Origin: an uncultured virus (IMG/VR IMGVR_UViG_3300024240_000003)
Taxonomy: Duplodnaviria; Heunggongvirae; Uroviricota; Caudoviricetes
Strand: one strand, 5' to 3'
IMG/VR virus record: IMGVR_UViG_3300024240_000003
DNA length: 64,000 bases
The position numbers were made by a program, and so were the translations under genes. Of the stretch, positions 10,258 to 62,328 are shown piece by piece. Every line of letters begins with the position of its first letter. The stretch's first letter is position 1. The notes under the pieces were generated by a model that did no database searches, was not told the origin of the DNA, and saw only the letters and a list, made by a program, of their open reading frames with translations.

Positions 10258-11046
10258 TTACGCTGCATCAGGTACTTTTTTTATCTTCCCTGTCGCTAAT
10301 TCATTTAATGCTTTTATTATATTTTCATCATCCATTATCATTCTTAATCCTTTCAGCGAATTTGCATCTTTGTAATTTTCTAAGTCTTTCTCTTCCCAGT
10401 TGTCCCACCAGCCGCTTTTTCCTTTTGATTTTTGGTTTCTGTTCATCCTGAGTTCACTTAATCTGGCTCTCACTTCGTCTTCATTTGCTAAGTATTGATG
10501 ATAATTATCACTTGCATCATATTTATCTTTACTGAGTAGGCTGTTTACTTTTCCTTGCATCTTGGTGTAGTTAAACTTCCCTACATATGGAGTCTCGCCG
10601 TTGAGTCCGTAGGTCAAGGCATGTGTGTATTCGTGTGCCCCGTCTTCCGCTATAGTCTCACTCGTATTGCCTTTGTTTATTTCTATGAATGGCTGTTTAA
10701 GAGGTTTTTTTGTGTTTTCATCGAGGAATTCAAATTTACCCCCCTCAGTAGTATTTTCATTAATATATTTTATAGGTACTTTTTTAATAAAATCAAGTGC
10801 CCCGGGCAGGTCTGCTCCTTTTCTTAAATATGGTTTTAATCTTTTTCCGGCTTCTTCTTTTGAATATTCTTCTGCCATCAGTTCATCGAGAGTTTTCTTT
10901 TTTTTCGGGTCGTCATCCGGACCGTCAGGTTGTGTGGGCAATGCTTCGCTTTGTAATGTAGAGAATACAGGCGACGTCTCCGGCATCACCCCGTAAGGTT
11001 TTCTCTTTAATCCGAGTAGTTCTAATATGTCAGTCTTTTGTGCCAT
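10258..11046 (-). CDS. Zincin-like metallopeptidase
   Basis: HEYTH (HExxH) plus downstream E..AR motif. Confidence 0.7.
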   Translation of the reverse strand: MAQKTDILELLGLKRKPYGVMPETSPVFSTLQSEALPTQPDGPDDDPKKKKTLDELMAEEYSKEEAGKRLKPYLRKGADLPGALDFIKKVPIKYINENTTEGGKFEFLDENTKKPLKQPFIEINKGNTSETIAEDGAHEYTHALTYGLNGETPYVGKFNYTKMQGKVNSLLSKDKYDASDNYHQYLANEDEVRARLSELRMNRNQKSKGKSGWWDNWEEKDLENYKDANSLKGLRMIMDDENIIKALNELATGKIKKVPDAA

Positions 11047-21600: not shown

Positions 21601-24600
21601 CGCCCTTCGTAACTTCTTTCACCTCAACTTTATTCTCGTTGATAAAATTAAGTAAATCCTGTTTGCTTACTTTATCTTTGCCTTTCAAGAATTCATCTAT
21701 TCCTAACCAATCATATTCCGCTTGTTTTACTCCGTTGTTAAGTAATGTGCTTTTTATCTGCTCCGGCGATGCGGAAGAAGGCAATTTTGAACTTGCTATT
21801 CTCTCAAGGTTCGAGTAAAATGTCGGTTTACTATTTTCTTCATCATATCCGGTTCCTTTCTCAAATACCGCATCGTCTGGTTTCGATTCAAATATAAATC
21901 CCTTTTTCTCTCTCGACCAATTTCCACCCTGCTGTTTCATCTCTTTGTGTATCTTCCAGAACTCATCCTTACTAACTTCATTATTCAATCTCGCTACCCA
22001 AATATCTTTTTTACCTTCAGTATCTTTTTCCCTATTGACATTGATATTTTTATTTTTTAATTTAGTAGCGCTTGTATTCAGTGGATTATCAGAGTGTTCC
22101 TGCTGCTGAATGGAACGCGGACGAGACACTTCGGACGCCTTCAGTTTTTCAACTACCTCTAACTTCTTGATATAATTATCATTCACTCTTGGTTCGAAAG
22201 TTATTACATTGTATAAACCCTTATCAGCCTTACCTTTTACGGAAATTAGTGTATAGTTATTGTCCTTCCATTTTTTTGTTATATAAATTCTTTCTTCTCC
22301 GTTATGATTTGATTTGAATATACTCGTCGGCTCGATTAATGTATTTTTCAGTTTACCGTTTTTTATTGCATTCAATTTTTCCCTCGAAATAACTCTTTTA
22401 CTAAAATCTCTTTTTCTTGTTTTAGTGTCCACAGCATTTATAGTTATAAAATGTGCCAACTTCTCACCTTCGGTCTCTGTTCCGGTAGGACCTAAATAAA
22501 CTTTAATGTCCTTTCCATATACTATAGGATTTTCCTTTGAGAACTCTTTAAAAAGTGGCTTAACTATTTCTATACTGTTTATTATTTCTTCATAATCTTT
22601 TTTGTCAAATTTATTGAGTGGATTTTTTGCATCTGTTAGATCTGAAACAGAATCTTTATTATTCTCTTTTTTCTGCTCTTCTTCGCTTTTCCCCACCGGA
22701 TTCAACTTCTCATCCAGTCCCGCTTCTTGCCTTTCTTTTTGTATATCCGAATCCTGATGCTCACCCGTAGGTTGGTCTCCGAAGAGGGAAGTCTGCCCGA
22801 ATAGCGATGTCTGAGCTTCATCATATGCTGCTCCCTTGTCAAATATCACTCCCTGCTGCCTGCCTTGTATCTTCACCTGCCCTACATCTGTCATTTCATC
22901 AATGTCTTCACCTTCCTGCAGAGCCCGGGCAATTCTTATTTTCCTTTGCGTAATCACCGCCCGCCTCTCGTCGTTAATAGCATCCTGTCCCCAGATAATG
23001 TGTACATCCGCCGGAGTTACACTGTTACGCCTCGAAAGTCTATATATTTCCTGCTGAAATAAATCCCCGCTATAAGGAGAGGAAACAATGTATCCAATTC
23101 TTTCTTTTCCTCCTAACCTCTGGTTATCCAGGTCTATTCCAACTCCTCCGCTTTTCGGTGTCATCATTCCCGCATCAAATTTGTCAGCTTGAAATTTTTC
23201 AATGTCTTTTATTTTGGCATCGCTGTCACTACCGTATATCTTTGCAAAACTTATTCCGGCATTTTCAAATTTCTTCGCAAGTGCTCCTATAAATCCGGGT
23301 ACTTCTATCCCTAATGATTTTATTGTCGTGGGATTTATAAAGTCCGCACATACTATCGGAAGCCTGCCTGCCGCTATGTCTCCCGCAACAGTTTCGAATA
23401 TATGTTCAACTTTCGCCGACTCCGTTATAGCCCAGAGCTCCCGGTTCCTTGAACGCCCGTATGCCATAGCTATTTTATCAGCATCCGTTATTCCGCTGTT
23501 TAATACTCTCCTTATTCTGTCCTGCCAGTGCTGCCAGATATCGCTCTGCATTTCATAAAAGTCCGCGGAAAATGGAACAGTCACTTCTTTTATGTTTCCC
23601 CAGAATGGATATTCGCGCCTGAGCATGCTTCCGGCTTTTATAGCTTCGTTCCGGAGTGCTATTATCCTTCTTACAAGTTCACCACTATCCAGTTTTTCAT
23701 CTGCAGCGGTGATAATCTTTCCGTTTTCATATTCGAGTTTGAGTCCTAATCTGTCTGCGATATCCTGCACGGGTTTTCCTGTTATTTCTGAAAGGAAATA
23801 AATTGATGCTTTCGGTGTGTCGAGCGGAGTCGCTGTTGCAAATAGATTTCTTTCGGTCTTTACGTTTGATTGTGCTATCGAGCGGAGTGCTTCAACGTTC
23901 TTTAAATTGTGTGCTTCGTCATAAATTGCAAGTCCGTAATCTTCCTTTCCTATCTTACCTGTCCTTAAATCATCATAAGTTCCTATATCAAATTGTGAAA
24001 TCCCTATCCTTAATGCTTTTGCTTCTGACTTAAAACTTTCGTCATATACTTGCTTGTTTGGTACTACAATCAGTACCGGCTTTTTCCAGGTGTCTATAGC
24101 ATATTTAGCTATAACAAGTTCTTCCCTTGTCTTTCCTAAGCCTGGTCCGTCGGCGAGTAATCCTGATTTGTTTCCGCCCTCAAAGTTGCTTATCATTAGA
24201 TTCGCACCGAATCTCTGATGCTCGTCTAATTCACTCTTTCCGTTTATTTCGTATTTTTCGGCGGGAATGTAGTCTTTTGACGGCTGTGGTACATCTTCTT
24301 CATCAAAATATCGTAATCCGGGTCGCTGAATTCTGCTCTCTCCAGCATCTGCTCCTCGAGGCTCTCGTCCGCCCCGTACATTTGACCGTTCACCTTCACG
24401 CTCTCCGACTTCATCAGGTTTTCTAATGTCATCGGAATTGAATTGTCTGATTTCGTTTTCATTTGATAATTCGTTTTTAATTGCAGGTGAGAGTTCATAT
24501 TCTTTTGCAAATTTCTCGTACCCCGCTTTTAAATATGGTAAAATATTTTGTAAATTCCTATGTCTTAATTCATTTGCTATATCATTTATCTTGACAACAC

Positions 24601-27600
24601 CTATCTTTGCAAACCTGCTTACTAAATCCGCAACTTTATCAACTGTCTCCACGTCCTCCGTGTCATACCCCGCCCCTTTATCGAAGAGTGCATTCTGCTC
24701 TTTCGCCGCATCGAGGTATTTATCAAGTTTGTTCTGAAATCCTAACTTTTCCGTTGTTAATTGTTTTATTAAATCTCTCTTTTTTTCGAGTGCCTTGTCA
24801 ATAGCTTCATCTGTTATTTTCGGATCTGCTTTCTGCCTCATCACAAATTCATCTCTGGAAGACGCTAAATCATCCTCCGCAGCTTTTATTTCCCTGTTGA
24901 GCCTTCCAAGTTCCTTTCGGAAGTCCGCTTCCTGTATAGATTCAGCCTTGTTTTCAATGTTCAGAGGCTTCGAATAATCGAATTCCCAGTCACCTTCCTC
25001 TAAGAATTTTAGCTTTGTTTTCAGGTCATCGTATGAGAAGTCTTGCTTTTTATTCAGCCAGTTGTAAATTTCCTCTTCGTGCTTGTTCGTAAGGTCTGGA
25101 AATTCCCGTCTCGCACGTCCTACAATAGATGCCATCTTCTGCCCCCGTGCTTTATTCTCCGCACTTGCAGAGTCCATCATCTTGTAATTCTGCACAATCG
25201 AACCCTTTGGATTCAGGAATGAAAGGTTATATACATCCTGTGAGTTTTTCTTTTCTAATTTCCGCGCCTTAGATAGAATATCTTTTTCAGGTTTACCTTC
25301 TAAGCGCATATCTCTGTATAATTTTGCACTTTCGGTAAAAGATTGAGCAGTGTTTAATTTGTTGCTTTTTTCCTTACCGTAAACTTTTGCCTGCTCCTCA
25401 GTACCTTTATGGAAAATTGATGGTATTTCATCAAACCCCGGGACTCCTTCTTCTGTTAATTCCTTATATGCCTGCAATCTTGAATGATTTAAAGCATATA
25501 TTTTATTGTCTTTCGGGTCTTTCCATAGTCTCACAGAATCAAACTCTTCGGGAATAAACTCTCCGTTTTTAACAGCATTTTTTATACTGTCTACTGTGTC
25601 TCGTGAATATTCATCCTCTCTGGGTTGAAATCTTTCAAGGTCAACACTTATTTGGTTTATTGGTACTAATTTTTCTCTGCTGAAATCTTTAAATTCAGAC
25701 GGCTCTTTGCTCTTACCTTCAGTAATCTTCCTGTCCTTAGTAGTAAATAAATCTTTTCCTATTTCATCAATCTCTTTCGATATCGCTTCCTTATCAGCTT
25801 TCTTTACCGCAGTTACAATCTTTTCCGGTTTCTCTACAGGTTTCTTTTCTTCTTCTTCTTTTTCAGCACCTGTAAGAACTCTTTCTTTGCTTTCTCCATC
25901 TGCAGGGGCTTCAACGTCTTTAATTCCCTCGGCGGGCTTATTTCCTTTGTCTTCATTTTTTATCTTTTTCCTTTCTTCTTTAGGTGTTTGAAGAATTCCA
26001 CCTGTGCCAGCCTCTTCTGTGCCTCGTCCATTGACAGGTTGTTTTTCGATAGGTTCTTTCTCCCCTCGCTCTTCACCTGGTAGCCCTTCGATGTTTTCTT
26101 TATCATTTCTCGATGCCTCTTTAATTTGAAATAATGAATTTGTTTCTTTACTGTCAACTTTCTCAACTTTGAATCCCTCAGGAAGTTTTGTGTTTATTTC
26201 TTTTAAAAGTTCATTAGAATTTTCTTTGCTTATCAGTGGGTCCGCAGAAGAGATATATTTCCCGTCAGATATATCATCTTTTGCAATATCTTGCGCTAAC
26301 GGATGTTTAAGCTCATCTTTTTTTATAATTACCTCTTTCTTCATGCCCTCTGTGTCCTTAGTGGTAGAGGGTTCTCCGCTCTTCTCCACCGGCTCTATTT
26401 CACTCAATAATTCCTCAGCTCTATTTATATCAGCAGGAGGAGGAGCAGGTTCTGTGTCGACTTTAGTTTCACTTTTTTCTTGTCCCAAAAATCCCTTAAT
26501 CTTTTCCATTGGTTCTACAGTAGGAATAATGTCACTTCCTTTCATCGGTCTGTAATGAAATGCACGGAAGAGCGTGTTTGTGAGCGCATCACTTAAAAAT
26601 TCTTTTCCGTTGAATCCTTTCCCGCTCATCAGTCCCGGGACCTGTGAAGCCATAGGAGGAACGAGCGCATCGTATAATAATCCTTTGAATTGTGCCGCAT
26701 TGAATCTGTTCTGGAATATTTTTGGAATTTCATACGGAGTTTCATCTACTGCCCTCTTTATTGGCTTTTCAATTTCTCCAAGTAAATTATTCCTTAAATT
26801 CTGATATTCCGGTAATTCCATTTCTCCTTTTGCCATTGCATCCCGACCGATTTGTAATTCTTTGAATGCTTTTTCTGTGAATAGTTTTTCTTCCGGAGTC
26901 ATCTTTACTCCGCGGATTACCTTTCCAAAATCCTTGCTCGCATCTTCATATAACTTTTTAACTTCATCTCCAAATGGATTGAGTCCGAATGCCGCACCTA
27001 AGAGAAGACTATGTCCCACATCACTTGACATATCTACCGGCTGTAAATCTCCTTTTGCCATCGAAATAATATCTCTACTTATCGTGGGAAGTGTGAACGT
27101 GCCTGTCGTCTGCATTATGTTTGGTATGTGCGCGGCTAAGTAATTTCCTACTTTATCACCTAAAAACCTCGATACTGTATTCAAAGCCCCGCTAACAGTT
27201 TCTTCGTTTGCCAAACGCCTCATAACCGGCCCCATTAGCTTACTGGATGCTCCCAGTCCAACGATAACGTCAGGAATCATCTTTGATATCGATTCTACTA
27301 CCGCCTTCGGCTTAACGTCAATTCCGAGCAGTTTAAATCCTTCTTCATTATTCTTTATAGCTTCCCTCTCCAGCCTTAGCATCTTAGGTCTTAAATCCGG
27401 CAGGAATCCGAATCCGGATGTAATACTTTCAACAAGCCCCTGTTGCATCGATTCAAGGAATCCGTTTGAATTGTTTTTATACTTTTCCTGTAGGTATGGT
27501 TTCAGTACCTGCTCGTCAAATATGTTTTCGGCTTCTTCCGTCTTCCGCCCTTCTTCACCTTGCAGAAGAGATTTTCCAATCCTGTAAGCCCATTGGTTCG

Positions 27601-28180
27601 GAAGTATAATCTCACCGATATTCTTTGGCTTTAATACTTCTGTTAATTTTTGTGGCTTCTGCTGGTCCAATGCTTCTTTTATTTTGTCAAATCTTTCGTC
27701 AAGCATTGCCTTTTCCTGCATTATCTCACCCGCATCAGGTCTTAAATATCCCGGCTCATTTATCGTTTTGCTTATATCTGCACCTTGTGATATCTGTTTG
27801 AAGTCATCTGCACTTTTCTTTTTCTTTAATCCATCCGCAAATTCAAGCATAGCCGCCGTCTTATCCCATCCTCCTTCAGCTACAACGTCTTTCACAATCC
27901 CGGGCAATCCTAAGTTATCAGTTCCCTTGTCGAGTGCTTCCCTCCTGCTCCTGAGTCCGAGTGATTTGAGAACGTCAATCACTTCCTTGTTTACTCCCGG
28001 CTCTGTTACAGTCTCCGGCAATGGTCCCGGAAGATTCACGCCTTCGTCCTGTGCAGTTTTTAAAATATTGGAATATCGTACCTTCTTTACATCAGGTTCA
28101 ACATAATGATAAGTCTTGTCAACATCGTTTAAGAGTTCCCTTGCCTTTTTTGATATTTTGGGTTTCGGATCGTCTGCCAT
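12638..28180 (-). CDS. Giant polyvalent (DarB-like) ejected virion protein, 5180 aa
   Basis: ParB-like domain (~25000-25680); SF2/SWI2-SNF2 helicase (LADGPGLGKT, DEAH, ATATP; ~22920-24230); BECR-like RNase (~22150-22560); EEVQSDW domain (~20060-21830); JAB/RadC (THNHPS...SDDD; ~19050-19400); SMS/EWHHTS domain (~18200-18420); wHTH; LPD38-like C-terminus. Confidence 0.85.
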   Translation of the reverse strand: MADDPKPKISKKARELLNDVDKTYHYVEPDVKKVRYSNILKTAQDEGVNLPGPLPETVTEPGVNKEVIDVLKSLGLRSRREALDKGTDNLGLPGIVKDVVAEGGWDKTAAMLEFADGLKKKKSADDFKQISQGADISKTINEPGYLRPDAGEIMQEKAMLDERFDKIKEALDQQKPQKLTEVLKPKNIGEIILPNQWAYRIGKSLLQGEEGRKTEEAENIFDEQVLKPYLQEKYKNNSNGFLESMQQGLVESITSGFGFLPDLRPKMLRLEREAIKNNEEGFKLLGIDVKPKAVVESISKMIPDVIVGLGASSKLMGPVMRRLANEETVSGALNTVSRFLGDKVGNYLAAHIPNIMQTTGTFTLPTISRDIISMAKGDLQPVDMSSDVGHSLLLGAAFGLNPFGDEVKKLYEDASKDFGKVIRGVKMTPEEKLFTEKAFKELQIGRDAMAKGEMELPEYQNLRNNLLGEIEKPIKRAVDETPYEIPKIFQNRFNAAQFKGLLYDALVPPMASQVPGLMSGKGFNGKEFLSDALTNTLFRAFHYRPMKGSDIIPTVEPMEKIKGFLGQEKSETKVDTEPAPPPADINRAEELLSEIEPVEKSGEPSTTKDTEGMKKEVIIKKDELKHPLAQDIAKDDISDGKYISSADPLISKENSNELLKEINTKLPEGFKVEKVDSKETNSLFQIKEASRNDKENIEGLPGEERGEKEPIEKQPVNGRGTEEAGTGGILQTPKEERKKIKNEDKGNKPAEGIKDVEAPADGESKERVLTGAEKEEEEKKPVEKPEKIVTAVKKADKEAISKEIDEIGKDLFTTKDRKITEGKSKEPSEFKDFSREKLVPINQISVDLERFQPREDEYSRDTVDSIKNAVKNGEFIPEEFDSVRLWKDPKDNKIYALNHSRLQAYKELTEEGVPGFDEIPSIFHKGTEEQAKVYGKEKSNKLNTAQSFTESAKLYRDMRLEGKPEKDILSKARKLEKKNSQDVYNLSFLNPKGSIVQNYKMMDSASAENKARGQKMASIVGRARREFPDLTNKHEEEIYNWLNKKQDFSYDDLKTKLKFLEEGDWEFDYSKPLNIENKAESIQEADFRKELGRLNREIKAAEDDLASSRDEFVMRQKADPKITDEAIDKALEKKRDLIKQLTTEKLGFQNKLDKYLDAAKEQNALFDKGAGYDTEDVETVDKVADLVSRFAKIGVVKINDIANELRHRNLQNILPYLKAGYEKFAKEYELSPAIKNELSNENEIRQFNSDDIRKPDEVGEREGERSNVRGGREPRGADAGESRIQRPGLRYFDEEDVPQPSKDYIPAEKYEINGKSELDEHQRFGANLMISNFEGGNKSGLLADGPGLGKTREELVIAKYAIDTWKKPVLIVVPNKQVYDESFKSEAKALRIGISQFDIGTYDDLRTGKIGKEDYGLAIYDEAHNLKNVEALRSIAQSNVKTERNLFATATPLDTPKASIYFLSEITGKPVQDIADRLGLKLEYENGKIITAADEKLDSGELVRRIIALRNEAIKAGSMLRREYPFWGNIKEVTVPFSADFYEMQSDIWQHWQDRIRRVLNSGITDADKIAMAYGRSRNRELWAITESAKVEHIFETVAGDIAAGRLPIVCADFINPTTIKSLGIEVPGFIGALAKKFENAGISFAKIYGSDSDAKIKDIEKFQADKFDAGMMTPKSGGVGIDLDNQRLGGKERIGYIVSSPYSGDLFQQEIYRLSRRNSVTPADVHIIWGQDAINDERRAVITQRKIRIARALQEGEDIDEMTDVGQVKIQGRQQGVIFDKGAAYDEAQTSLFGQTSLFGDQPTGEHQDSDIQKERQEAGLDEKLNPVGKSEEEQKKENNKDSVSDLTDAKNPLNKFDKKDYEEIINSIEIVKPLFKEFSKENPIVYGKDIKVYLGPTGTETEGEKLAHFITINAVDTKTRKRDFSKRVISREKLNAIKNGKLKNTLIEPTSIFKSNHNGEERIYITKKWKDNNYTLISVKGKADKGLYNVITFEPRVNDNYIKKLEVVEKLKASEVSRPRSIQQQEHSDNPLNTSATKLKNKNINVNREKDTEGKKDIWVARLNNEVSKDEFWKIHKEMKQQGGNWSREKKGFIFESKPDDAVFEKGTGYDEENSKPTFYSNLERIASSKLPSSASPEQIKSTLLNNGVKQAEYDWLGIDEFLKGKDKVSKQDLLNFINENKVEVKEVTKGAGTISEKRQQQIKDAEIRRNKIYDKYKEANTDLQNQLKEKGVSFSDRSEWTHILDSMKFNSPQMSGAVDNILKYLPDYDINKYHDIVEAHNEAIDSYEDIKSIKEQADTKFAQWQLPGGENYKEVLLTLPSGKPLLKFADYYNELAEKYGLNPREISQKRLRAEITPEEDKKLESLRQTGEETRPDVFKSGHFDEPNVALHLRMNDRTTADGKKILFLEEVQSDWGEKGRKEGYSGDEKLYDEYLEKLKKKYGLEKRQGFPDILLEKMTDEEDRELDKLSVKSGVPNFPFKKNWQEVGMKWALRHATENGYDGIGWTTGEQQAERYDLSKQVNKIEYSYNKRADGYFIKIFGKNNEILNVINPNEVVLKNELSNLVGKEIAEKIINSKETVGKIEGDNLKIGGEGMKGFYDKIIPEFMNKYTKKWGGKVGEKELTINNDSKLNNQYKEPRIVEKGNKFVIEAMSPNGEYNLVIKTFLTRAKAEKYIKENYVESSPIHSLDITPSMKESVMQGQAVFERGAEYEAYKGDLGLGIGNPYEYLKTLQDYNDRIANLYAESGDYKYAKELRAIQERAKDVIAAMKKYNSEQPLEGQIDIYGDEINNKIDKEITVLQKEGLKNVNIEGKEPGQLDLFNKAIGDLARYDFSISSGQLGLFNYNELAGREQLPDATTGKEAAESDTGNNDTDSKMGNIGGEGKAESTGGKEPGSDRLFGELPLRYNKEYLEKTRKMIEDGQIEFIGKEVNTPADLAYMVQVLRDPRFESFRVFYMKDGKIVGYKTVTSRLPNAVIFSPDMKELIKGDISKLGADEVILTHNHPSAEHYASDDDIKTTYEFMKEIPEIKAHIVTNHGKYSVIHRLNFEQRFGDITNIKQEAKKRNDSVFEKILKTQDIYDFADEDNLKLGYDTLLDPKSHSGYMGQKISSKKLQNIVKELQGNDNAVTLIGVDPQMKITTMHEVPMGLLDNYEDILEYLRKIGVETGSSHFAMVMGNEENLSPFARTNVEQMLQDQQLVDFLDNSKQKSWRNDNKKEYPWEGGEVTNYRRYFGEEIGTNVGEMVSEKRKPFGGNSGYVGHSMSKRAESAYEEGKLPYSKLPTWAKRMVDAGLATTNEWHHTSSYGNETPFYSVDEFISPFLFSEAELKELGSDNLDNIESFKDVPKNVIKALDTKSKEVIKKKNNIKNVRSKYVYEAQKELDDFNSKFKTFKREDKEPEHGIVSSVEMNGKYGWFDATYKYNLPRYYSGIDYETAENLNKAEELRNNLKVAKDEPIYKIELSKQGFDEKTINELKNRGIINSEILPEIFYINAEKNKDFIKGQVKELSTLPKPEEKFNPVFNRNGGDSFLTDEEKQARQNEHSFISGQGENYGSSYERRNAHQDIDLKYNEIFTERYKKAKQDFLNSDEVKVQEEKFNKDKVKAKNITNDLTSLLNGTEEYSENKILSSDESNESNFESKSQLKSETPKGNKQISTDDLSDSNLSDKNINVNREKDTEGESPDYSSDYKFGSLTNYNLDEGIKSGVGEIKKGLEDFKDSIFSSLPKKGGSVKVSDIAEKSGRDTKEIRKVTEELFKRGIISEKGDGYEMEEDPGELESEFKNNPEEFPKLLEHTSTSYFIEHKDNLIKIGTFGISNNPKMTEGEFKDSMDRLFESQKVPFKFSENQYKELYELASADYVNRVATEELAREKKMKPRKFGKQIGRSDEVNERIKQALENKFYKPIANKVTLEKALQHVEDYGIDDSIEAIKRNDAEIENEVKVAMGEYLIKRLSLEGEELEKGGDILAAEEKYKKAVDLAGYTMEAGTLLGRGVQAYAMFKNLSPAGFLRYAKKQIEGKDTVTEGGKLVKVTRYVADDMDEFLKGDELDNYIAGVRGEISDLSKKIVELSAEMETKGKLSDKEKEELFKEYEDLHQSMVEAVGNIKNKELSDAVQKLTSEFEERNKKAEYIIRELKARVKGYEDAEKVTTIINNVTGSLKDLTDRIVNEINKGEVSEKSKTAARELRQKAQDYEDASKILAKKVINTLKPPLKPEPPDIVKEMVRTLFQVAKENKLVPEKQPMTKRKLIEIVGKAVKMEADYRDVWVKAQEIVKKKFGKDEKALTILDNYFKHYLENPWSEKEVSSVVKTGLKEMEVNLSDIVKKHFSVVDEAKETLTDKLLKEADLDTFPKGTLGTRDSDAPGNEELKNRIDGFAKTIKEDFDKKVEERKRKILESRLDIKPKEAKKLYEKIIELSNLGALDFEDYRQLFAQKYKMKFITDEQSKEIIKRANKVQELPADSLQQQQEIQDLFDYIEKQKGISFGDRFWGYRYASMLSGLSTHIKKGLSEFILSVDNLYADIRHPEEIPGRIKQYAEGIKKGLPEASAVMKGKVSILSGSDIYGPNRALDLIGNYAWSPMAWAKYVSRTLKAGATMFHYATAEMEAWAIARRMAGKQGLRGKELDDTINKMLGLTDEIREKAKAQAEAEGLKGVDKVRRINQIVEQSRDKKITEISRKYGLQNTFQGKPYGLAGMIAQSANGMSKKAIPKSSPILPGAKVGNLINFVIPFRNIVANVYNMGFNYSPWGIYRGIYGHYNGLGGEKFAEGEDWRYITRGLKGTALIGLIGAAALKGLIEITGTGPSSYKQQQELRATGWKPYCIKIGNRWYDYSHIPTIATPLLAVGTIVDNLKYSKKEDESWADRIGSTLFICMHSILDKSFMSGALRFFKAVGDTEGEFGRYYTDQAIDIPTGFVPNILKQMRVIWDDKYYDASTLRERFIKNIGIGEEWLGLKPMINALGEPVTKDYSNMFVVSGTDVKSDRVWKWIVDNNAWITLPDKKELVSIGGKERAMTDDEYYNYVKISGGYIRKGLEGSIDAINKIEDANDRRWYVKELVGICRDKAFDEMFKGMGAELQKKSEKQKKKDKDEEIYDAIENYGKRVAFLDKLDDINIIIKDKYKIKTNDGNEWIYKPEEDEEGKFKIDRKRILRLAEEKPGIKGERLTKFKQEINQIPE
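17151..17181 (+). promoter_or_regulatory. Antisense promoter inside the giant gene
   Basis: TTGACA-17 nt-TAAATT(TG). Confidence 0.65.
17185..17298 (+). ncRNA. Candidate antisense structured small RNA 1
   Basis: Promoter, three hairpins (two with TTCG loops), 13-bp terminator stem followed by TTTTATTTT. Confidence 0.6.
19453..19749 (-). CDS. Candidate overprinted ORF nested in the giant gene
   Basis: 98 aa in an alternative frame, AAGGAAGG RBS 8 nt before ATG, ends just before the JAB domain. Confidence 0.4.
   Translation of the reverse strand: MLISRVRNQVNWIYSIKPSETLQDTISVLAVDNWGYLIITNWQEENSYRMQQQVRKPPNPIPEITTQIARWEILAEKEKQRAPEERNPGLIDSSENYH
22035..22065 (+). promoter_or_regulatory. Antisense promoter inside the giant gene
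   Basis: TTGACA-17 nt-TAATTT(AG); lies in a 40-bp block 39/40 identical to 17130..17169. Confidence 0.6.
22070..22150 (+). ncRNA. Candidate antisense pseudoknotted RNA 2
   Basis: ATTCAGTGG/CTGCTGAAT and GTGTTCC/GGAACGC form interleaved stems; next to the BECR-like RNase domain. Confidence 0.45.
24244..24462 (-). CDS. Candidate overprinted ORF nested in the giant gene
   Basis: 72 aa alternative frame under an R/G/E-rich linker, just before the helicase domain. Confidence 0.35.
   Translation of the reverse strand: MKTKSDNSIPMTLENLMKSESVKVNGQMYGADESLEEQMLERAEFSDPDYDILMKKMYHSRQKTTFPPKNTK
25960..26106 (-). CDS. Overprinted small basic protein nested in the giant gene
   Basis: 48 aa MIKKTSKGYQVKSEGRKNL...AQKRLAQVEFFKH, resembling a stand-alone small protein family; GAGG upstream. 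Confidence 0.55.
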   Translation of the reverse strand: MIKKTSKGYQVKSEGRKNLSKNNLSMDEAQKRLAQVEFFKHLKKKGKR

Positions 28181-37527: not shown

Positions 37528-38973
37528 TTATGACACAAACACAGGTTCTGCCGGATAAAATAATCCATGGTATGGTGTTGCCGCATTGTGTAATAAGTAG
37601 CTCCATGTACCTCTGAATTCGTCTTTATATCCCGTAAAGTCCGTTTCCTGTATGTTTGTAAAGAGTGAATCCGGTTCCAGTACGTAAGGCTGAATCATAG
37701 GCCATGTCAGCGCCATGCAGTATGGCTGGTACCTGTTGTTGTAGAGTTCCGATATGCTTCTGTGGACAATCATATCCATTGTTGCAGTGCCTACCATAGC
37801 ATCAAGATGAATAGTCCTTACTCCGGGAATTCCAATTTTGTCGTTATCTTCAATCTTAATTCCGGGATGACGTACCTTTAATTGTGTTAGATATCTTACA
37901 AATGCCTGATTGCATACTCCTAATCTTCTCTTTGCCTGGTCGGATAGTCCCGGGTCATACAAGCTCCAGAGCCAGTATTCCAGTGCAGTGTAAAACGCAT
38001 CGTCCCTGATGTCGTTTTCGTATGCTTTTATTGCCGGTCCGCCACCGTTGAGTAACCAGTATTCTAACCCTTTTCCTTTTACCATTACTTCAGATGGTCC
38101 GAGTGGAATAACATTCGGATCGGAAGAGTATTCAACTTTATGTACATATTCATTGCCGCCCCAGATGATTTCCTTGTCCTTAAGCTCGAGGAATGCAGAC
38201 TGTGCATCTTCGTTCTTTTCCATCTTTTTGGTCTTTGGCTCTGTGAAGAGTTTCATTCTCTTTTCAGTGTTGTCACCTTCATAAGGCCATTTCGAATATG
38301 TTACAAAGTTGTTGATTACAAATGGATGCCATGACACCGAAGTTACGCTTCTCGTCGCAGGTCCGAATATAGCGGATAAACAGTTCATTACAATTCCGCT
38401 TGCAACGGTATCTCCATTTTTGGAGTCTGTTCCAGTATATCCTACTCCAATTAGTAATTCCGGATTAATTGCTTTTACTTTTATGGTCGTTCTTGTTGTA
38501 CTTACTTTGTCGGATACATATACATCTCTTGTGTATAATTCCCCGTGATGGCTCAGGTCAGCATTGTAAAGGAGTTGTATATGCTGATTCTTAATCATGT
38601 TGTTCTTTTCATCGACTGCAAGCGTCAGTATCACTTCACCACCGGCTTCGGATGGAATCTGAGAAGCAAATGATGCTGTCGTTACGTGAACTGTCTTTAT
38701 TCGCTTTTTGTCGAATCCTCTTACTTCATCACTTTCAAGCTGTTTGTATTTTAATTTTTGAAGGAGTGAATGGATTGGTGCAAATTTCTCTTTGTTGTCG
38801 TATATCTTTTTGTCGTACGTAACCTGTATTTGCTGTGGTCCGTACACACCTGTTGTTGTAGCTCCTTCATAACTTATTGTATATTCAGGCGCATCTACAC
38901 CGCAGACTAATTTGTCGCTGAATATATAAAGAAGTGTGAAAATCGCTAAGAATAGAGATTTTAATTTTGTCAT
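37528..38973 (-). CDS. Major capsid protein
   Basis: 481 aa directly after the scaffold; N..T..K, KEIIWG, GLEYWL and D.TGYKDEF motifs seen in HK97-fold capsids. Confidence 0.7.
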   Translation of the reverse strand: MTKLKSLFLAIFTLLYIFSDKLVCGVDAPEYTISYEGATTTGVYGPQQIQVTYDKKIYDNKEKFAPIHSLLQKLKYKQLESDEVRGFDKKRIKTVHVTTASFASQIPSEAGGEVILTLAVDEKNNMIKNQHIQLLYNADLSHHGELYTRDVYVSDKVSTTRTTIKVKAINPELLIGVGYTGTDSKNGDTVASGIVMNCLSAIFGPATRSVTSVSWHPFVINNFVTYSKWPYEGDNTEKRMKLFTEPKTKKMEKNEDAQSAFLELKDKEIIWGGNEYVHKVEYSSDPNVIPLGPSEVMVKGKGLEYWLLNGGGPAIKAYENDIRDDAFYTALEYWLWSLYDPGLSDQAKRRLGVCNQAFVRYLTQLKVRHPGIKIEDNDKIGIPGVRTIHLDAMVGTATMDMIVHRSISELYNNRYQPYCMALTWPMIQPYVLEPDSLFTNIQETDFTGYKDEFRGTWSYLLHNAATPYHGLFYPAEPVFVS

Positions 38974-39073
38974 AGGTCTTCTAAAGAAATTAATTTTTTA
39001 TAATTTTGTTAATTAATCTCCCGAAAAGATATCCTCTGACTGTTGTGAACTCACATTAGAGTAGGCTTCCCGT

Positions 39074-40432
39074 CTACGGAATATCGTTTATCTTGTATTC
39101 CTCGTATCCGGTGCCTTTAACAGATTTGGATTTATCTTCACTCGTCCGACTCACATTAGAGCCACCTCCACCGGGAGGAGGAGGATTTTTGGACTGTCTT
39201 TCTCTTGCTTTTTTTATTATATCATCAATGTTGTCAGCTCTTACTTCTTTTAATGTTTTCCTGCTCTTCACTCCGGCAGCAGGTACCGGGTACATGTCTC
39301 TTTCAAGTTCAAACCATTTGTCAATCGGTCTTTCTTCCCGCTCTTCTTCCGGTACGTCGTCTAAATAATCCTGAAGTATCTTGTTTACAATCTTCGCCTT
39401 CGTGTATTCTTCTTTCTCAACATCAATTCCATGCTTCGCCTTGTAACGGATTATGTAAGTTTGCTCTATCGTCTCTAATTCGGGAAAAGCCTTCTGCAGT
39501 TGACTGCATAGCGCCAGTGCCTCTACTGTCTCCGCTTCTTCTCTCATTCCTTCAAGCCTCTTCTCGTATTGCTTTATCAGTTCCTCATTGTCTTCCTTCC
39601 TGATTTCGGCTTTGAGTTGTTGCTTTTTAAGGTCTTCGGTCTTTGCTTCCGTAGGCTCGTCATCAGGTTTCTTCTCGAGAAGTGTTGTTAACTCTTCATT
39701 TTTCTGCTTTAATTCTTTAATCTTATCCTGATATGTCTTTTCAAATTCTTGTGCTTTGGCTTGTCTTGCATTAAAACTCTTTATTTCTTCGTCTAACTTT
39801 CTCTTTTCCTTTGCAACCTGCTGTGATTTCTCCTGCCTCGTTTTTGTTTCGATGTCCAGGTTTAACCTGTCCTGTAAAACTTTTATCTTTAAATCTTTCG
39901 GAAGTTTTTCAAATGCTTCTTTCCCGTAATGCTTTTCTGCCTTCTCGGTTAAATCGGCAAGTTCCTTCTGCGTGAGTGTTTGGTCACCTAATTTAATCTC
40001 CTCGGTTTCTTCATCCGGTTCGATTTTAAACTTCTTCATTAACTCTTCCTTGGTCTGCTCCTGCCCGTCAATTTTCTTCTTCTCCCCGTCCTTCATTCCT
40101 TTCACAAGTTCCGTAGCTTCTTCAAGAGAGTATTCCGTTTCATCAAGTTTAAATTTGTCTTCCCCGGCTTCTGCTCCCGCTTCTTTTTTCTCTCCGCCTT
40201 CCTCTTTCCCGTCATCATCACTCTTGTCTTTCACCTCTACTTCTTTCTGCACCCCGCCGTTCCCCTTTTCATCGGGAGGTATGTATTCACCACCGTAGTC
40301 ATTTACTATATCATCCGGAATTTTCCCGTTGTCCCCTAATACGAATCTTTCTGAAAAAATAAAAAGCACACTCAGGATATTTCCGAGTATGCTTTTGAAA
40401 CTTGCTGCTTTATAGGATGAGTTTTTTTTCAT
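39074..40432 (-). CDS. Scaffolding protein
   Basis: Acidic coiled coil with PPPPGGGG tail, between terminase and capsid. Confidence 0.7.
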   Translation of the reverse strand: MKKNSSYKAASFKSILGNILSVLFIFSERFVLGDNGKIPDDIVNDYGGEYIPPDEKGNGGVQKEVEVKDKSDDDGKEEGGEKKEAGAEAGEDKFKLDETEYSLEEATELVKGMKDGEKKKIDGQEQTKEELMKKFKIEPDEETEEIKLGDQTLTQKELADLTEKAEKHYGKEAFEKLPKDLKIKVLQDRLNLDIETKTRQEKSQQVAKEKRKLDEEIKSFNARQAKAQEFEKTYQDKIKELKQKNEELTTLLEKKPDDEPTEAKTEDLKKQQLKAEIRKEDNEELIKQYEKRLEGMREEAETVEALALCSQLQKAFPELETIEQTYIIRYKAKHGIDVEKEEYTKAKIVNKILQDYLDDVPEEEREERPIDKWFELERDMYPVPAAGVKSRKTLKEVRADNIDDIIKKARERQSKNPPPPGGGGSNVSRTSEDKSKSVKGTGYEEYKINDIP

Positions 40433-40540: not shown

Positions 40541-42166
40541 TTATACGTACCTGTTTCTTCCTCTTTCTTCAATTTCTTCTGCCGCTCTTTTTTGTTCTTC
40601 CGGACTGGTTGAAATGTATCTGGAGTCCGTCAGAGCAAGTATTCCGTGCTTGAGTCCGTCATAAGGGTTGTCAATTTTTTTCGAAGATAATATCTTTGGC
40701 ACTTCATAGTCTTCATCATTATTTTTATCTGTCTGTAGCTCCACAAATGCTCTTATCAGGTGTTTATTTTTTTTAGATACGAATAAGTGTGGACGCTTTA
40801 TGAACATTCCGTTGTTATCAAGTCTGTAATCGAGCAAATCTTTTATATACCTGTTACAGCTTACTCTGAACTTCTTGCTGTCACTCATGTTCCATCCTAA
40901 ACTCCCTTTCTTTTTCGATATGCATTCAATACGGAGTCCCTCACTCCTGAAGTACTGCGCACTCATCGGCAGATTCATGCCGTATTCTTTTAACTTCGAA
41001 AACATATTTGTGTCGGAAACCGTTAATGCATTCAGCATCCCTAAATCCCTCAGCCACCTTTTGTAACTCCGCGCTTTCTCCTTTCCTTCCAGCCCAATTT
41101 CAAACCATTCTCCGAATGCATAAAATGTCTTCGTCTTTTCATTTAAGAATGTCCGCTCTGCTATTGTCATGTCTCCGTAATCCATTCCGAAGAGAGTCTT
41201 CCACGTTTCCGGTACTTCAAATTCATCTATGCAGTGAACGTCTCTGTTGAATATCTTGAAGAATTGCCCTTCAAATATGTCCCAGCTCCCTTCAAGAAAT
41301 CTTTTCCTGTCCAGTGCATTCATTCTTTTCAGCCTCTTTATGTATCCCGGGTCGTTTTCTGTCACCTTCGGATTGTCCCAAATCCTTGCCGGAATGAAAC
41401 AGGCTGTCTCTGGAAAGTATTCCGATGCCATGTCTGGAAACTCTTTGTCGAAATCTTTATCGATATAATAACTTTTAACGTGCCTGTGCGCTATGCTTCC
41501 CGGATTTGTCGCTCCCGCAAGGTATGGAATAAATCCCCCTCTCGTAGTCCTTAACCTCGAACCGATAGCAATTGTAAATTCAAATGGAATAGTTGTTTCT
41601 TCATCCAGCAATATAATGTCCCATTCCGAACTTAAATATTGCTCCATGTCTCTTATATGATCTCCGTATCCGAATTGAAGTATTGAATTCGTAGGCTTGT
41701 ATATTACTCTCTTTTTCCCCTCATTATATCTTATTATTTCTCTTGGCAAATCTGTTCTTATCTTGAGCAGATGCGTTTTTTCAAGTTCTGCAAAGCTGGT
41801 CCTGATTAAAAGTATTTTTAGCTCATGGTATCTTAATCCTTCATAATGCGCCTGCCAGCGTAGTCCCGTGCTTTTCCCCGGGCCCGCCGCTCCGCCAAAG
41901 AGAAAGTCAGTGAATCCGTTTTCCGCCCGATGCTCTATAAGCCAGTGGAAGAGAGATTGCTTCGGCATCGATTCGTATTTCACATCACCATTAATCGAAA
42001 TTACAAGCGGCTTTATCGTCTTTAAATCGTATTTCTTGCCTTCAACCTCCGCGATGTCAGTGTTTAAGCCTGCTCTTGTATAGGGGTTTTTAAGTTTTAA
42101 ATCTTCTATTGTTTGGATTGCAGCGTAATTTTGAGGTGTGCTCTGTATGTAAGGAGTTATTATCAT
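40541..42166 (-). CDS. terL: Terminase large subunit
   Basis: GGAAGPGKS Walker A, LLDEET Walker B, ATNPG, GMDYG nuclease motif. Confidence 0.93.
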   Translation of the reverse strand: MIITPYIQSTPQNYAAIQTIEDLKLKNPYTRAGLNTDIAEVEGKKYDLKTIKPLVISINGDVKYESMPKQSLFHWLIEHRAENGFTDFLFGGAAGPGKSTGLRWQAHYEGLRYHELKILLIRTSFAELEKTHLLKIRTDLPREIIRYNEGKKRVIYKPTNSILQFGYGDHIRDMEQYLSSEWDIILLDEETTIPFEFTIAIGSRLRTTRGGFIPYLAGATNPGSIAHRHVKSYYIDKDFDKEFPDMASEYFPETACFIPARIWDNPKVTENDPGYIKRLKRMNALDRKRFLEGSWDIFEGQFFKIFNRDVHCIDEFEVPETWKTLFGMDYGDMTIAERTFLNEKTKTFYAFGEWFEIGLEGKEKARSYKRWLRDLGMLNALTVSDTNMFSKLKEYGMNLPMSAQYFRSEGLRIECISKKKGSLGWNMSDSKKFRVSCNRYIKDLLDYRLDNNGMFIKRPHLFVSKKNKHLIRAFVELQTDKNNDEDYEVPKILSSKKIDNPYDGLKHGILALTDSRYISTSPEEQKRAAEEIEERGRNRYV

Positions 42167-42209: not shown

Positions 42210-42656
42210 CTATTTCTTCATCTCAGGCACGCTTATATTTATCGTTATTCCAGCCTCCACCGGTGCCGTGTCATCGGTATATATATGTAAGCATTTAGCC
42301 ATATTGTTTAATCCGGAGTTTGCCCCGGCCGCATTGAATTCACATAACATTTTCTTTCTTTTCCCTTTTATCTTCACTTCCACCGATTCTGTCTGCATGC
42401 ATCTGTCAATAACTTTCTTCTGCGTCCTCATCCACCAGGCAACGTCAACTCCGGATTTCTCTATCACTTTATGCGAGAGTTCTTCAAGGTATTTCATTAC
42501 ATATTTCTTTTTAAGCAGTTGATATCCCATTTGTCTCGCATTCTTTTCTGTGTATCCTGCCGCTATAGCCGCCCTGGATGCGTTGGAGTCTTTTGCGTAT
42601 TCTTCACAAAACTTTATCTGCTGTGCCGTTAGGTTGTTTAAATCTTCTTTTGCCAT
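42210..42656 (-). CDS. terS: Terminase small subunit
   Basis: LTAQQIKFCEEY...NASRAAIAAGY. Confidence 0.92.
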   Translation of the reverse strand: MAKEDLNNLTAQQIKFCEEYAKDSNASRAAIAAGYTEKNARQMGYQLLKKKYVMKYLEELSHKVIEKSGVDVAWWMRTQKKVIDRCMQTESVEVKIKGKRKKMLCEFNAAGANSGLNNMAKCLHIYTDDTAPVEAGITINISVPEMKK

Positions 42657-43183
42657 TATTTTATTTTTTTATCTAACTGCTTTTCTTCAATCATTTTATT
42701 AATTCCACCTACCTGCTCATCTATATCCTTTCCTGAAGCAATGTACCAGAAGTTCATAACCTGATTCGTCTCAATTGCAAATACCATCTTAGGGTCTTTT
42801 TCTAAATAACTTTTTATCAACATTGCATACAACTTCTTACGGTCTCTTGCTAAAAACCTTTTTATCACTTCCTTATCATATTTACTAATTCTTCCGTCGC
42901 CGGAGAGATGCGTGTGCCATATCCCTATAACTTCATACCCTCTTATCAAATAAGGCAAACACTTAAAAAGTATTACCAACATATTCGGAGGCTCGTATTT
43001 TACTTTCTTCTCTCTTGCTTTATTTCTTAAATTTATAAATTTGTAAAAATAATATTTTGCCCTTGCTCTCTTTTTCTTGAATTTGTAATATCTGAGCCCG
43101 GGTCTCATTTGGAAATTCCCAATTATTACACCCCCGGTCTCTTTCCTTTTATCCCGCTTTATGACAGGTGATTTTTTTATCAT
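42656..43183 (-). CDS. JAB/MPN domain protein
   Basis: ETGGVIIG...IGIWHTH......S..D JAMM motif. Confidence 0.7.
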   Translation of the reverse strand: MIKKSPVIKRDKRKETGGVIIGNFQMRPGLRYYKFKKKRARAKYYFYKFINLRNKAREKKVKYEPPNMLVILFKCLPYLIRGYEVIGIWHTHLSGDGRISKYDKEVIKRFLARDRKKLYAMLIKSYLEKDPKMVFAIETNQVMNFWYIASGKDIDEQVGGINKMIEEKQLDKKIK

Positions 43184-43184
43184 A

Positions 43185-43421
43185 TCAATAAGGTAGTATC
43201 ATTCCGGACACAGGAAGACAGCCTCCGTAACTAAGAAGATTAGAAAGAAGAACTCCCCACTCATCTGAATCCGAAATAGATTTCTCAACCAGTATTCTTT
43301 TCTCAGGTTTTTCTTCTTCAAAATATATCGTTCCGCAATAAGTGCATTTATGTTCCCCGGGTCCCACCGCTTCCAGCTCCGAAGCTCCGCAGTTGTCACA
43401 TTGGAATTTATTGAACTTCAT
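43185..43421 (-). CDS. Zn-ribbon protein
   Basis: CDNCGA...CTYCG. Confidence 0.6.
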   Translation of the reverse strand: MKFNKFQCDNCGASELEAVGPGEHKCTYCGTIYFEEEKPEKRILVEKSISDSDEWGVLLSNLLSYGGCLPVSGMILPY

Positions 43422-43710
43422 CTTTCTCCTCCTTTGCCAGTATATCAGGCTCTCTTAACATTAAATAATTATTCCCTTCAAATTCAATCTTCGTAGCAAC
43501 GTATTCTTCAAATATTACTACATCTCCTACGCCTACTTCCATTATCATCAGTTGTCCTTTGTCATTAACAAACCCCGGACCTACGGCAATCACTTCCCCT
43601 CTCGTCGCCTTCTGAGCTCGCTCTGGTATGATAACTCCTCCCTGACTAATATTTTCTATAATTGGTTTCACAAGTATTCTGTCTGATAATAGTTTTTTGA
43701 TTTCCGGCAT
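43408..43710 (-). CDS. groES: Co-chaperonin GroES
   Basis: LSDRILVK...GGVIIP...GEVIAVGPG...VGDVV...LREPDILA. Confidence 0.92.
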   Translation of the reverse strand: MPEIKKLLSDRILVKPIIENISQGGVIIPERAQKATRGEVIAVGPGFVNDKGQLMIMEVGVGDVVIFEEYVATKIEFEGNNYLMLREPDILAKEEKDEVQ

Positions 43711-53984: not shown

Positions 53985-54863
53985 TTAAATTGACTGATAA
54001 TAAACTACGTTATAATGATTCGTTAATAATTCTTTGATTTTATCCTGCTCCTCTTTCTCCAGTGTTATAAATTCAGACTTTTTTGAAAGCAAATTATTGT
54101 ATGCTTCACATTCTTGCGCATTTTTTAATTTCATAATTTCAGTTTTCAATCTCTCCCCCGTTTCTGATAATTCCGAATCTGTCGACCCATCACCCGGCAT
54201 CGTTATATATTCCCTCCAGGTATCCGGATTGAAAAAGGTTTTGCCCAGCTTTATAAATTGCCGTTGTATTTTTGCCGAATAAATGAACTTTTTGTAATTG
54301 CTCATCGCAGTAAAAAAGTCCTTCAAATCTTGCTCGGAATTAATGGATTGTTGGAAGTGCTCCCACGCTACTTTTTTTCCCATCGGATTCGGATATAAGT
54401 TCCACGCTCTTAAAAAATCTTTTTCCTGAACTATATATATATTACTTGTATTATTGTTATTAAATGTATGTAGTGAACTTTGTTCACTTTTTAAGTGAAC
54501 TTTGTTCACTTTTTTAGTGAACTTTGTTCGCTTTTTAGTTGGTTCAAATTGTGAACTTTGTTCACTTTTTATAATAGCCTTGTCATACCACTTATCAGTG
54601 ACTTTCCTGAGATGTCCTTTCTTTTCTAAAAATCCTTGAATTTCCAATTTAGCTTCAATCTTATTCACACCTTCCCGGGTGAATCCAATTAAATCGGCAA
54701 TTTTAATTTGATTGATGCTGCACCATCCGCTCTTATTCTTCGGATTGGAAGAGAGGTGATAAATGATATCCAGAACGCAATACTCATTGCACGTTAGCCC
54801 CAGTTCCTTCCTGGCTGTATGATTTATCGTTGTATAATTAACTGTAAAATCCTTTTCGCTCAT
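53985..54863 (-). CDS. Replication initiator protein (N-terminal wHTH)
   Basis: HTH, internal iterons, F..AW..YP..GK..A C-terminal domain. Confidence 0.75.
   Translation of the reverse strand: MSEKDFTVNYTTINHTARKELGLTCNEYCVLDIIYHLSSNPKNKSGWCSINQIKIADLIGFTREGVNKIEAKLEIQGFLEKKGHLRKVTDKWYDKAIIKSEQSSQFEPTKKRTKFTKKVNKVHLKSEQSSLHTFNNNNTSNIYIVQEKDFLRAWNLYPNPMGKKVAWEHFQQSINSEQDLKDFFTAMSNYKKFIYSAKIQRQFIKLGKTFFNPDTWREYITMPGDGSTDSELSETGERLKTEIMKLKNAQECEAYNNLLSKKSEFITLEKEEQDKIKELLTNHYNVVYYQSI
54472..54570. repeat. Iterons / probable phage origin
   Basis: Four copies of GTGAACTTTGTTC(A/G)CTTTT, three at a 22-bp period, next to an AT-rich tract. Confidence 0.8.
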
Positions 54864-59345: not shown

Positions 59346-59424
59346 TTTAAACCTCCTATTTTTTAATTTTTTTGAAAAAATTTCTTATAAAAGTCGCTAT
59401 TGCTCTAATTTGTTCTTAAAAAAA

Positions 59425-59457
59425 GTTTGCCCGCCTGACGAAGATAGGCGGGCAAAC
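59425..59457 (-). terminator. Intrinsic terminator / palindrome
   Basis: GTTTGCCCGCCT...AGGCGGGCAAAC followed by a T-run on the minus strand. Confidence 0.65.
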
Positions 59458-59465
59458 CAAATTTT

Positions 59466-59729
59466 TTAACCGTCACCGGAACCGTCACCGGAACCGGAAC
59501 CGTCACCGGAACCGTAACCGGAACCGTCACCGGAACCGTAACCGGAACCGTCACCGGAACCGTAACCGGAACCGTAACCGGAACCGTAACCGTAACCGTA
59601 ACCGGAACCGGAACCGGAACCGGAACCGGAACCGGAACCGGAACCGTAACCGGAACCGTAACCGTAACCGTCACCGGAACCGTCACCGGAACCGGAACCG
59701 GAACCGGAACCGGAATTTACTTTTCCCAT
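59466..59729 (-). CDS. Gly-Ser/Tyr/Asp dipeptide repeat protein
   Basis: ~40 hexamer units GGT-TCC/TAC/GAC; ATG with GAGG RBS overlapping the upstream gene. Confidence 0.55.
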   Translation of the reverse strand: MGKVNSGSGSGSGSGDGSGDGYGYGSGYGSGSGSGSGSGSGSGYGYGYGSGYGSGYGSGDGSGYGSGDGSGYGSGDGSGSGDGSGDG

Positions 59730-60013
59730 ACCGGTACCTCTTTTATACTTTTTTCTGCGGCAGGTGTACAATCTATTATTTCAATTGCTTCAGTCAATTC
59801 CACTCTGTCAACTTCACAAGGGAATTTGCAATTTTCAGGTTTTTTTACACCTTCCATAGCAAGCTGACTTAATGATGCTGCTCCGTCCCAGTACCATAGC
59901 CGCCTCGCTTTTTCCATTACCACTTCTTTTCCTTTCTTTGCAATAATGTATCCGGCAAATACACCTGCTGAAAATGTTCTTACAATCTGATATTTCTTTT
60001 TGCCTTTAGGCAT
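59717..60013 (-). CDS. Conserved phage protein (DUF6948-like)
   Basis: IVRT..AGVF.G...ARRLWYW.GAASLSQLA.EG. Confidence 0.75.
   Translation of the reverse strand: MPKGKKKYQIVRTFSAGVFAGYIIAKKGKEVVMEKARRLWYWDGAASLSQLAMEGVKKPENCKFPCEVDRVELTEAIEIIDCTPAAEKSIKEVPVWEK

Positions 60014-62256: not shown

Positions 62257-62328
<72 letters not shown>

Follow-up and report, generated by a model that had tools for sequence, protein, structure and literature searches.

Why should two unrelated proteins of a phage head, the major capsid protein and the scaffold, begin with the same short hydrophobic segment, and what becomes of that segment when the head is assembled? The question is raised by a 64,000-nucleotide stretch of DNA from an uncultured virus of the Caudoviricetes (IMG/VR record IMGVR_UViG_3300024240_000003), here called the window, which contains a complete prophage. 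The shared segment, or leader, is very probably a functional tag common to both proteins, and its sequence context suggests that it is probably removed. A more specific model, to which we give a probability of roughly 45%, is that the leader would be a membrane-tethering assembly tag, cut after a Gly or Ala residue by a JAB peptidase that the phage itself encodes.

The leaders of the capsid and scaffold proteins

The window open reading frame (ORF) at 37528-38973 (minus strand) encodes a 481-aa major capsid protein of the SU10_MCP family with the HK97 fold, which bears out the identity given to it in the initial annotation. A profile of the capsid family matches the capsid structure of Vibrio phage VP1 (PDB 9in6) with E 1.9e-21, and an AF2 model made from the family alignment (pLDDT 82.6) matches 9in6 (E 5.6e-22) and the crAss001 capsid (5e-14) in Foldseek; the capsid of SU10 (7z45) likewise shares family and fold. 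PF17236 is matched by 16 of the 31 alignment members, with no match for the window capsid alone. Single-sequence AF2 gave a pLDDT of 35, and the Atlas capsid model was uninformative. Capsid homologues were not matched in a single-protein locus scan of viral contigs, in GenBank phages, in the PDB by single sequence or with sub-alignment A5, and in word-indexed protein searches the only matches were the capsid and scaffold of the window itself and, when the profile was used, a single relative.

The capsid begins with MTKLKSLFLAIFTLLYIFSDKLVCG. Its leader, residues 1-25 (38899-38973, minus strand), has a basic start, 14 uncharged residues (6-19), Asp-Lys and then L-V-C-G, and the proposed cut would fall after Gly25. 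The alignment-based model folds it as a single helix over residues 2-22, with low confidence over residues 19-55. Directly upstream of the capsid gene lies the gene for a putative scaffolding protein of 452 aa (39074-40432, minus strand), acidic and Lys-rich past a leader of 33 residues (40334-40432, minus strand). Residues 13-33 (40396-40334), which read KSILGNILSVLFIFSERFVLG, match the capsid leader, and the corresponding cut would follow Gly33. Its role as scaffold is putative, based on its position, its composition and weak similarity to same-position genes in five relatives (BLAST E 8e-14 to 3e-5); there are no Pfam or PHROG matches, and the only NCBIfam match is weak and unrelated.

The initial annotation had reported that the two leaders align without gaps, and this holds up quantitatively: over 21 residues, 9 are identical and the BLOSUM62 score is 45. 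Shuffling the first 40 residues of both proteins 5,000 times never reached that score, nor did 200,000 in-register shuffles. Among the 1,770 pairs of N-termini from 60 window genes, the capsid-scaffold pair ranks second, behind two ordinary signal peptides (52 vs 45), and the leader block is absent from the other window proteins (best other score 18 vs 72-75). Different codons are used at seven of the nine identical residues, two of them Ser residues switched between TCN and AGY, arguing that the likeness has been kept at the protein level and is not the result of a fresh DNA copy. Contigs from an independent DNA run span both leaders with zero differences. Contigs from an RNA library span both leaders and the JAB gene as well; these were not counted as expression, DNA carry-over being possible.

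True starts downstream of the leaders, a possibility raised in the initial annotation, did not turn up. The starts lie upstream of the leaders, and the capsid gene contains no ATG, GTG or TTG between codon 1 and codon 43, which is within the conserved core, so that the leader cannot be skipped by use of an ordinary start. The scaffold gene has a GTG at codon 22, within its leader. In two related scaffolds (L153:5883-7286 and L134:1497-2798), a Met directly follows the leader, and two isoforms are possible there. The residues past the leader of the G758 scaffold resemble the starts of the leaderless L050 and L070 scaffolds, as if a leader had been added before an older start. The scaffolds of leaderless loci (L035, L030, L122, L031, L129 and L014 among them) often start with a short F-G motif (MGIFG, MGFFG, MSLFG), possibly a conserved N-terminal signal of their own.

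Conservation of the leader in the capsid family

An exhaustive HMMER search collected 38 proteins, and the window capsid was aligned with the 30 near-full-length relatives, seven fragments being left out. The initial annotation had proposed looking for the motif in homologues. The leader is indeed widespread, with a hydrophobic leader starting 27 of the 30 aligned relatives; the exact motif is not conserved, and what the family keeps is the order of a hydrophobic helix, an aromatic residue and then Gly or Ala. The window leaders end in V-C-G (capsid) and V-L-G (scaffold), in register with I-F-G of the nearest relatives, and so have Cys or Leu at the aromatic position.

Leader statistics were computed on 33 capsids, after P0026, P0027, P0029 and two near-duplicates had been dropped and locus-derived capsids added. 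The pattern [FYW]-[GA] occurs 4-16 residues ahead of the conserved core in 28 of these 33, compared with a shuffle mean of 7.7 and maximum of 16 (0 of 2,000 shuffles as good). Counted up to a fixed core column, 31 leader-bearing capsids have a median of 57 residues and 27 leaderless ones a median of 31; removal of about 25 residues would thus give the length, and the family start, of leaderless relatives. The VP1 capsid (9in6) is 399 aa long and, by profile offset, starts near the leader end; distant members of the family, like their scaffolds, have no leader. One of 42 leaderless capsids and one of their 42 scaffolds are as hydrophobic at the start as the weakest leader, with the threshold set after the data had been seen and some of the 42 pairs being near-copies. 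A quick tree groups the leader capsids in a single clade (SH-aLRT 100).

Matching of leaders within phages

Complete scaffold and capsid genes of the leader clade are available at eight loci (L106, G638 and G564 were left out, the scaffold being truncated or missing from the contig). Both proteins carry leaders in six of the eight pairs. When each scaffold leader was compared with the 33 capsid leaders, the capsid of its own phage ranked 1, 1, 1, 2, 3 and 24; in permutations, a within-phage match of this quality arose in 2 of 720 cases for the six pairs and in 70 of 40,320 when the two pairs with a leaderless scaffold were added. Examples of matching segments are PKLFA/IKVFA in G728, IPLFA/LPLFA in G756 and KLFSFLFKL/RLFSFLYRL in G757. 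The leaders covary even though capsid and scaffold are unrelated, which implies that they were copied repeatedly or are recognised by a common partner.

In G728, a Tad2-like anti-defence protein (PF11195; L198:5974-6381, G728:C1) has the same leader as the scaffold and capsid of that phage. Its leader scores 67 against the scaffold, with the next ORF at 31, and it is the only other match to the leader in the G728 genome (69% complete); the gene lies about 3 kb upstream of the JAB gene. This one example indicates that the tag is portable, and the protein is a possible capsid-targeted anti-defence cargo. The Tad2-like protein of G756 lacks the leader, and no further tagged proteins were found in the other seven loci.

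The candidate leader peptidase and the packaging genes

The initial annotation had found no prohead protease gene and had suggested a JAB protein, a zincin and signal peptidase as candidates for cutting the leader. The absence was confirmed in that no classical prohead protease was found among 50 window proteins (Pfam and PHROGs), and the S78 prohead protease (PF04586) was absent from three virus records; two matches in the host genome G001 lie on other contigs. The JAB suggestion has sharpened into a specific candidate, a stand-alone JAB/JAMM zinc peptidase of 175 aa (42656-43183, minus strand). The zincin-like ORF (10258-11046; 262 aa, HExxH) was rejected as cutter, having no BLAST match in the relatives compared.

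The window JAB is a predicted peptidase, with the JAMM motif E...H-x-H-x7-S-x2-D (E15, H90, H92, S100 and D103 intact) on a modelled MPN fold. Its match to PF14464 (E 7.8e-5) is below the cut-off; JAMM1 structures are matched by profile (E 0.04), and Atlas feature and structure searches give JAB proteins (TM 0.62). The gene overlaps the start of that for the terminase small subunit (42210-42656, minus strand; PF03592, E 3e-19), which is followed by the large subunit gene (40541-42166, minus strand; phrog_979, E 4e-23). In all six members for which this region is available, namely the window, G756, G757, G758, G728 and G564, a JAB gene precedes terminase at a distance of 0 to about 3.5 kb; the contigs of G717 and G638 end in or just before terminase, and L050, L070 and L106 are outside the test. 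The Glu, first His, Ser and Asp are invariant across the six. Clustered pairwise, the genes for portal, large terminase and capsid were the only ones to reach all six members, and other accessory genes reached at most four; the JABs themselves form two clusters of three, joined by profile and Pfam, and other diverged genes may likewise be undercounted. The Pfam Prok-JAB search missed two of three known family JABs, and a family profile was used instead. With it, no JAB was found in eight leaderless records (best E 0.11; three of the eight complete), and a search of 26 leaderless records was also negative. Complex prediction with JAB, capsid residues 1-45 and zinc gave scores of 0.62, 0.00 and 0.00 and was not used as evidence either way.

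A phage GroES co-chaperonin is encoded near the JAB gene (43408-43710), as it is in G757 and G758, and may help to fold the leader-bearing capsid. The putative portal (7757-9850, minus strand) is leaderless and takes its name from synteny, its homologues in relatives (E to 5e-109) being encoded between terminase and scaffold; in the window it sits 30 kb from terminase and scaffold, past a giant protein gene.

Host enzymes were also considered. The initial annotation had held the leader to be distinct from the motif cut by the host protease Prp in staphylococcal phage 80alpha, and the host data agree: Prp (PF04327) was not found in five host genomes (69-97% complete; controls positive in 3 of 14), and the L27 protein of host G001, the one host L27 examined, starts MAHKK and thus has no N-terminal extension. 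Prp was rejected as cutter on these grounds. A profile of the window leader matched nothing among G001 host proteins at better than E 0.7. Double-glycine and prepilin leaders were rejected by eye, as the window leaders have a single Gly and their hydrophobic part lies ahead of the site.

Comparison with host signal peptides

The leaders resemble signal peptides in having a basic n-region, a hydrophobic h-region and small residues at -3 and -1. For comparison, 44 signal-peptide-like N-termini were collected by a simple rule from 318 kb of G001, with four lipoprotein-like ones set aside; the set includes some false members and was selected on hydrophobicity, so hydrophobicity itself was not compared. 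Cleavage sites were called heuristically, and the automatic site in the window capsid is I-F-S, not V-C-G. Signal peptides of the host group tend to be followed by Gln at +1, with a Q-value of 77% in Ignavibacterium album (PMC5837995, in the part available). This rule is statistical and not an enzyme requirement, and Gln at +1 is found in 24 of the 44 host N-termini vs none of 32 leaders. Lys or Arg past the hydrophobic stretch is present in 23 of 32 leaders vs 5 of 44 host peptides, so that most leaders lack a short uncharged c-region, and KKKMKK or RKKR runs precede the site in two of them. The distance from stretch to site is also longer in the leaders (median 9 vs 6, and up to 24), and their hydrophobic moment is higher (1.55 vs 1.06), so they are the more amphipathic of the two groups.

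Proposed mechanism and alternative explanations

In the model considered here, the leader would act as a portable, translated assembly tag on capsid and scaffold. Its 14 uncharged residues have charges on either side and do not suffice for an ordinary membrane span; they would sit at the inner membrane on its cytoplasmic side, or pack with other leaders, and the basic residues on both sides of the helix would prevent export. In this way the helix would bring the capsid and scaffold, along with other proteins that carry the tag, to where procapsids are put together. During head assembly, the stand-alone JAB encoded upstream of terminase would cut after Gly or Ala, freeing a capsid N-terminus of the length seen in leaderless relatives. 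Cleavage by the bacterial JAB protein Cap3 after a protein ending in Gly or Ala fits leaders that end in Gly or Ala.

Several observations weigh against this model. The full leader is missing in three of the 30 aligned relatives (P0026 is short, P0027 is cut and P0029 has no leader), the L050 and L070 phages (two of eight) have a leader on the capsid only, and the G717 pair is mismatched (rank 24 of 33). Aromatic-Gly may have a structural use, given the F-G starts of several leaderless scaffolds. Asp replaces the second zinc His in two of the six JABs, and the gene sits among GroES, Tad2-like and other accessory genes, so that the enzyme could serve in counter-defence. The link between JAB and capsid crosses contigs in G728 and G564, the leader of the latter being deduced from the near-identical G638 capsid. 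The JAB profile was built from the leader clade (leave-one-out E 5e-20 to 0.005) and applied to leaderless records few of which are complete, and since the leader capsids form one clade, JAB-with-leader amounts to a single evolutionary contrast. Finally, the removal of the 80alpha leaders from capsid and scaffold by Prp is dispensable, according to the available part of PMC5744158.

This last point leads to a different reading, which we consider rather improbable: the leader could be an amphipathic arm, permanent or dispensable, that is never cut and serves to anchor capsid and scaffold or to co-fold them, with the JAB being a Cap3-like counter-defence isopeptidase. The 80alpha scaffold leader is needed while its cleavage is not (PMC5744158, same part), and overexpression of Cap3 counteracts CBASS (PMC10097602 and bioRxiv 10.1101/2022.03.31.486616, as far as their available text goes). 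Tad2-like genes in the JAB region of two relatives, the His-to-Asp change in two JABs and a weak match of the window JAB to the anti-phage cap2_3 model (E 5e-6, far under the cut-off) would also suit such a role. An uncut arm fits less well with an aromatic-Gly/Ala pair that is conserved, keeps almost the same distance from the core and stands just where leaderless relatives start, or with the low-confidence or acidic residues straight after it, which look like those of a cut site; nor does it fit with the retention of JAB in six of six members when other accessory genes reach four at most. The leader might instead be a Sec signal peptide, or a mimic of one, taken off by signal peptidase I or a similar membrane protease of the host while the JAB does something else. 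Its basic start, 14 uncharged residues and small-aromatic-small end do resemble host signal peptides (I/L/S-F/Y-S/A), a few of which also end K-x-L-F-A without Gln, and signal peptides have been predicted on Porphyromonas phage capsid proteins (PMC10367356, available text). That explanation is unlikely, however, given the missing Gln, the charges past the hydrophobic stretch, the longer distance to the site and the higher hydrophobic moment. Topology is a further difficulty: signal peptidase I acts on the periplasmic side of the membrane and capsids are filled in the cytoplasm. Least probable by far is a chance likeness of two hydrophobic N-termini or a mis-called start. Hydrophobic segments easily score alike, as the top-ranked window pair of signal peptides illustrates, and the Met past the leader in two related scaffolds could be read as a true start. 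Against this, composition-keeping shuffles never reach the observed score, and the leaders are family-wide and matched within phages, with comparable hydrophobicity in only one of 42 leaderless capsids and one of their 42 scaffolds; for the capsid, which has no alternative start, this explanation is refuted.

A broader version of the tag-and-JAB model is doubtful: the clade as a whole would build procapsids from membrane-tethered capsid and scaffold subunits, the JAB, a protease of the deubiquitinase type, would release them in place of a prohead protease, and the tag would double as an address that directs cargo (a Tad2-like signal sponge, for instance) into the head under assembly, to be delivered with the virion.

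The prophage and its host

The 62-kb prophage is flanked by a perfect 37-bp repeat (297-333 and 62257-62293, plus strand), with the integrase gene (484-1557) just inside the left copy and a host aminotransferase gene next to the right one. The repeat, as recognised by eye, resembles the 5' part of a tRNA-Gly, which would be an unusual tRNA end for integration if confirmed. Besides the integrase, the interval between the repeats encodes lysis functions, a virion-type protein of 5,180 aa, the head and packaging proteins and those for replication. An Ignavibacteria-type host is probable, given its many proteins with secretion-sorting domains, signal peptides that follow the Gln rule and a weak Atlas lead. 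Of the 24 rows for sequencing runs containing half or more of the head region, 17 carry a peat or permafrost metagenome label.

Other features of the prophage were noted. The 5,180-aa protein (12638-28180) has SNF2/ResIII-like helicase and RadC-like JAB domains along with internal repeats, and G756 and G757 hold relatives of it (at least 4,000 aa). The adjoining gene (11211-12641) encodes a 476-aa protein which, read by eye, resembles an ATP-grasp ligase; it had no library match, and no counterpart was found in relatives. A DUF6527 gene lies in the lysis region (3035-3442), and in G717 it is found between portal and scaffold instead (L134:2889-3221). Four 23-bp iteron-like repeats within the replication initiator gene (54471-54571) mark a likely origin. 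A 12-bp tandem array (59419-59754), coding for Gly-Ser/Tyr-Gly-Asp repeats, adjoins a small gene at 59717-60013.

Relationship to known systems and implications

The closest parallel is 80alpha, in which an unrelated capsid and scaffold also share an N-terminal leader with an aromatic residue beside a small residue at its end, no phage prohead protease is present, and the leader motif occurs on other proteins in other phages; the 80alpha leader, unlike the 19-44-residue membrane-type helix described here, is a 13-14-residue copy of L27 (PMC5744158, in the part available). A further difference is that the candidate cutter here is a phage JAB and not a host Prp. The initial annotation called the leader undescribed, which is too strong. 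One sentence in the accessible text of PMC10367356 reports signal peptides on the major capsid proteins of Porphyromonas gingivalis 'Nixviridae' phages and ascribes them to phage prohead proteases. Those proteins, from prophages of a related host group, have similar signal-peptide-like N-termini; the window differs in that no classical prohead protease was found and in the tag shared with the scaffold and, in its relative, the Tad2-like protein ('scaffold' is not mentioned in the main text of that paper, as available).

In phage T4, a capsid-targeting sequence directs proteins to a prohead that assembles bound to the membrane, and the gp21 protease cuts at sites ending in Glu. As in T4, a removable N-terminal tag could load unrelated cargo into heads assembled at the inner membrane. 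The T4 tag, however, is not a hydrophobic helix, and both its protease and its Glu-ending sites differ from those proposed here.

With respect to the enzyme, the window JAB resembles CBASS Cap3 and archaeal JAMM1 in being a stand-alone JAB with E...HxH-x7-S-x2-D. Cap3 cuts linear fusions after the last residue of cGAS, Gly or Ala (PMC10097602 and bioRxiv 10.1101/2022.03.31.486616, in the portions available), and the window JAB would similarly cut after a non-ubiquitin substrate ending in Gly or Ala. In contrast to both enzymes, no Cap2, CD-NTase or ubiquitin-like partner was found in the prophage, and the proposed substrate is the N-terminal leader of structural proteins. In a literature search, with most subscription papers outside its coverage, no paper was listed that deals with a JAB as head protease or with capsid and scaffold sharing a hydrophobic leader. 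New here are a membrane-type leader with a single Gly/Ala that is tied to a JAB, the differences between this leader and the signal peptides of the host, and the Tad2-like protein that carries the tag.

What shared capsid and scaffold leaders are for is a question that 80alpha poses as well; for addressing it, this family has a candidate enzyme encoded by the phage itself, a Gly/Ala site that is defined, and substrates that are short. If the JAB does cut the leader, JAB peptidases would join the classes of head-maturation protease, and many phages whose annotation shows no prohead protease would gain one. If the tag tethers subunits to the membrane, or loads a Tad2-like protein, it would be a small signal for capsid targeting and a way for virions to carry anti-defence.

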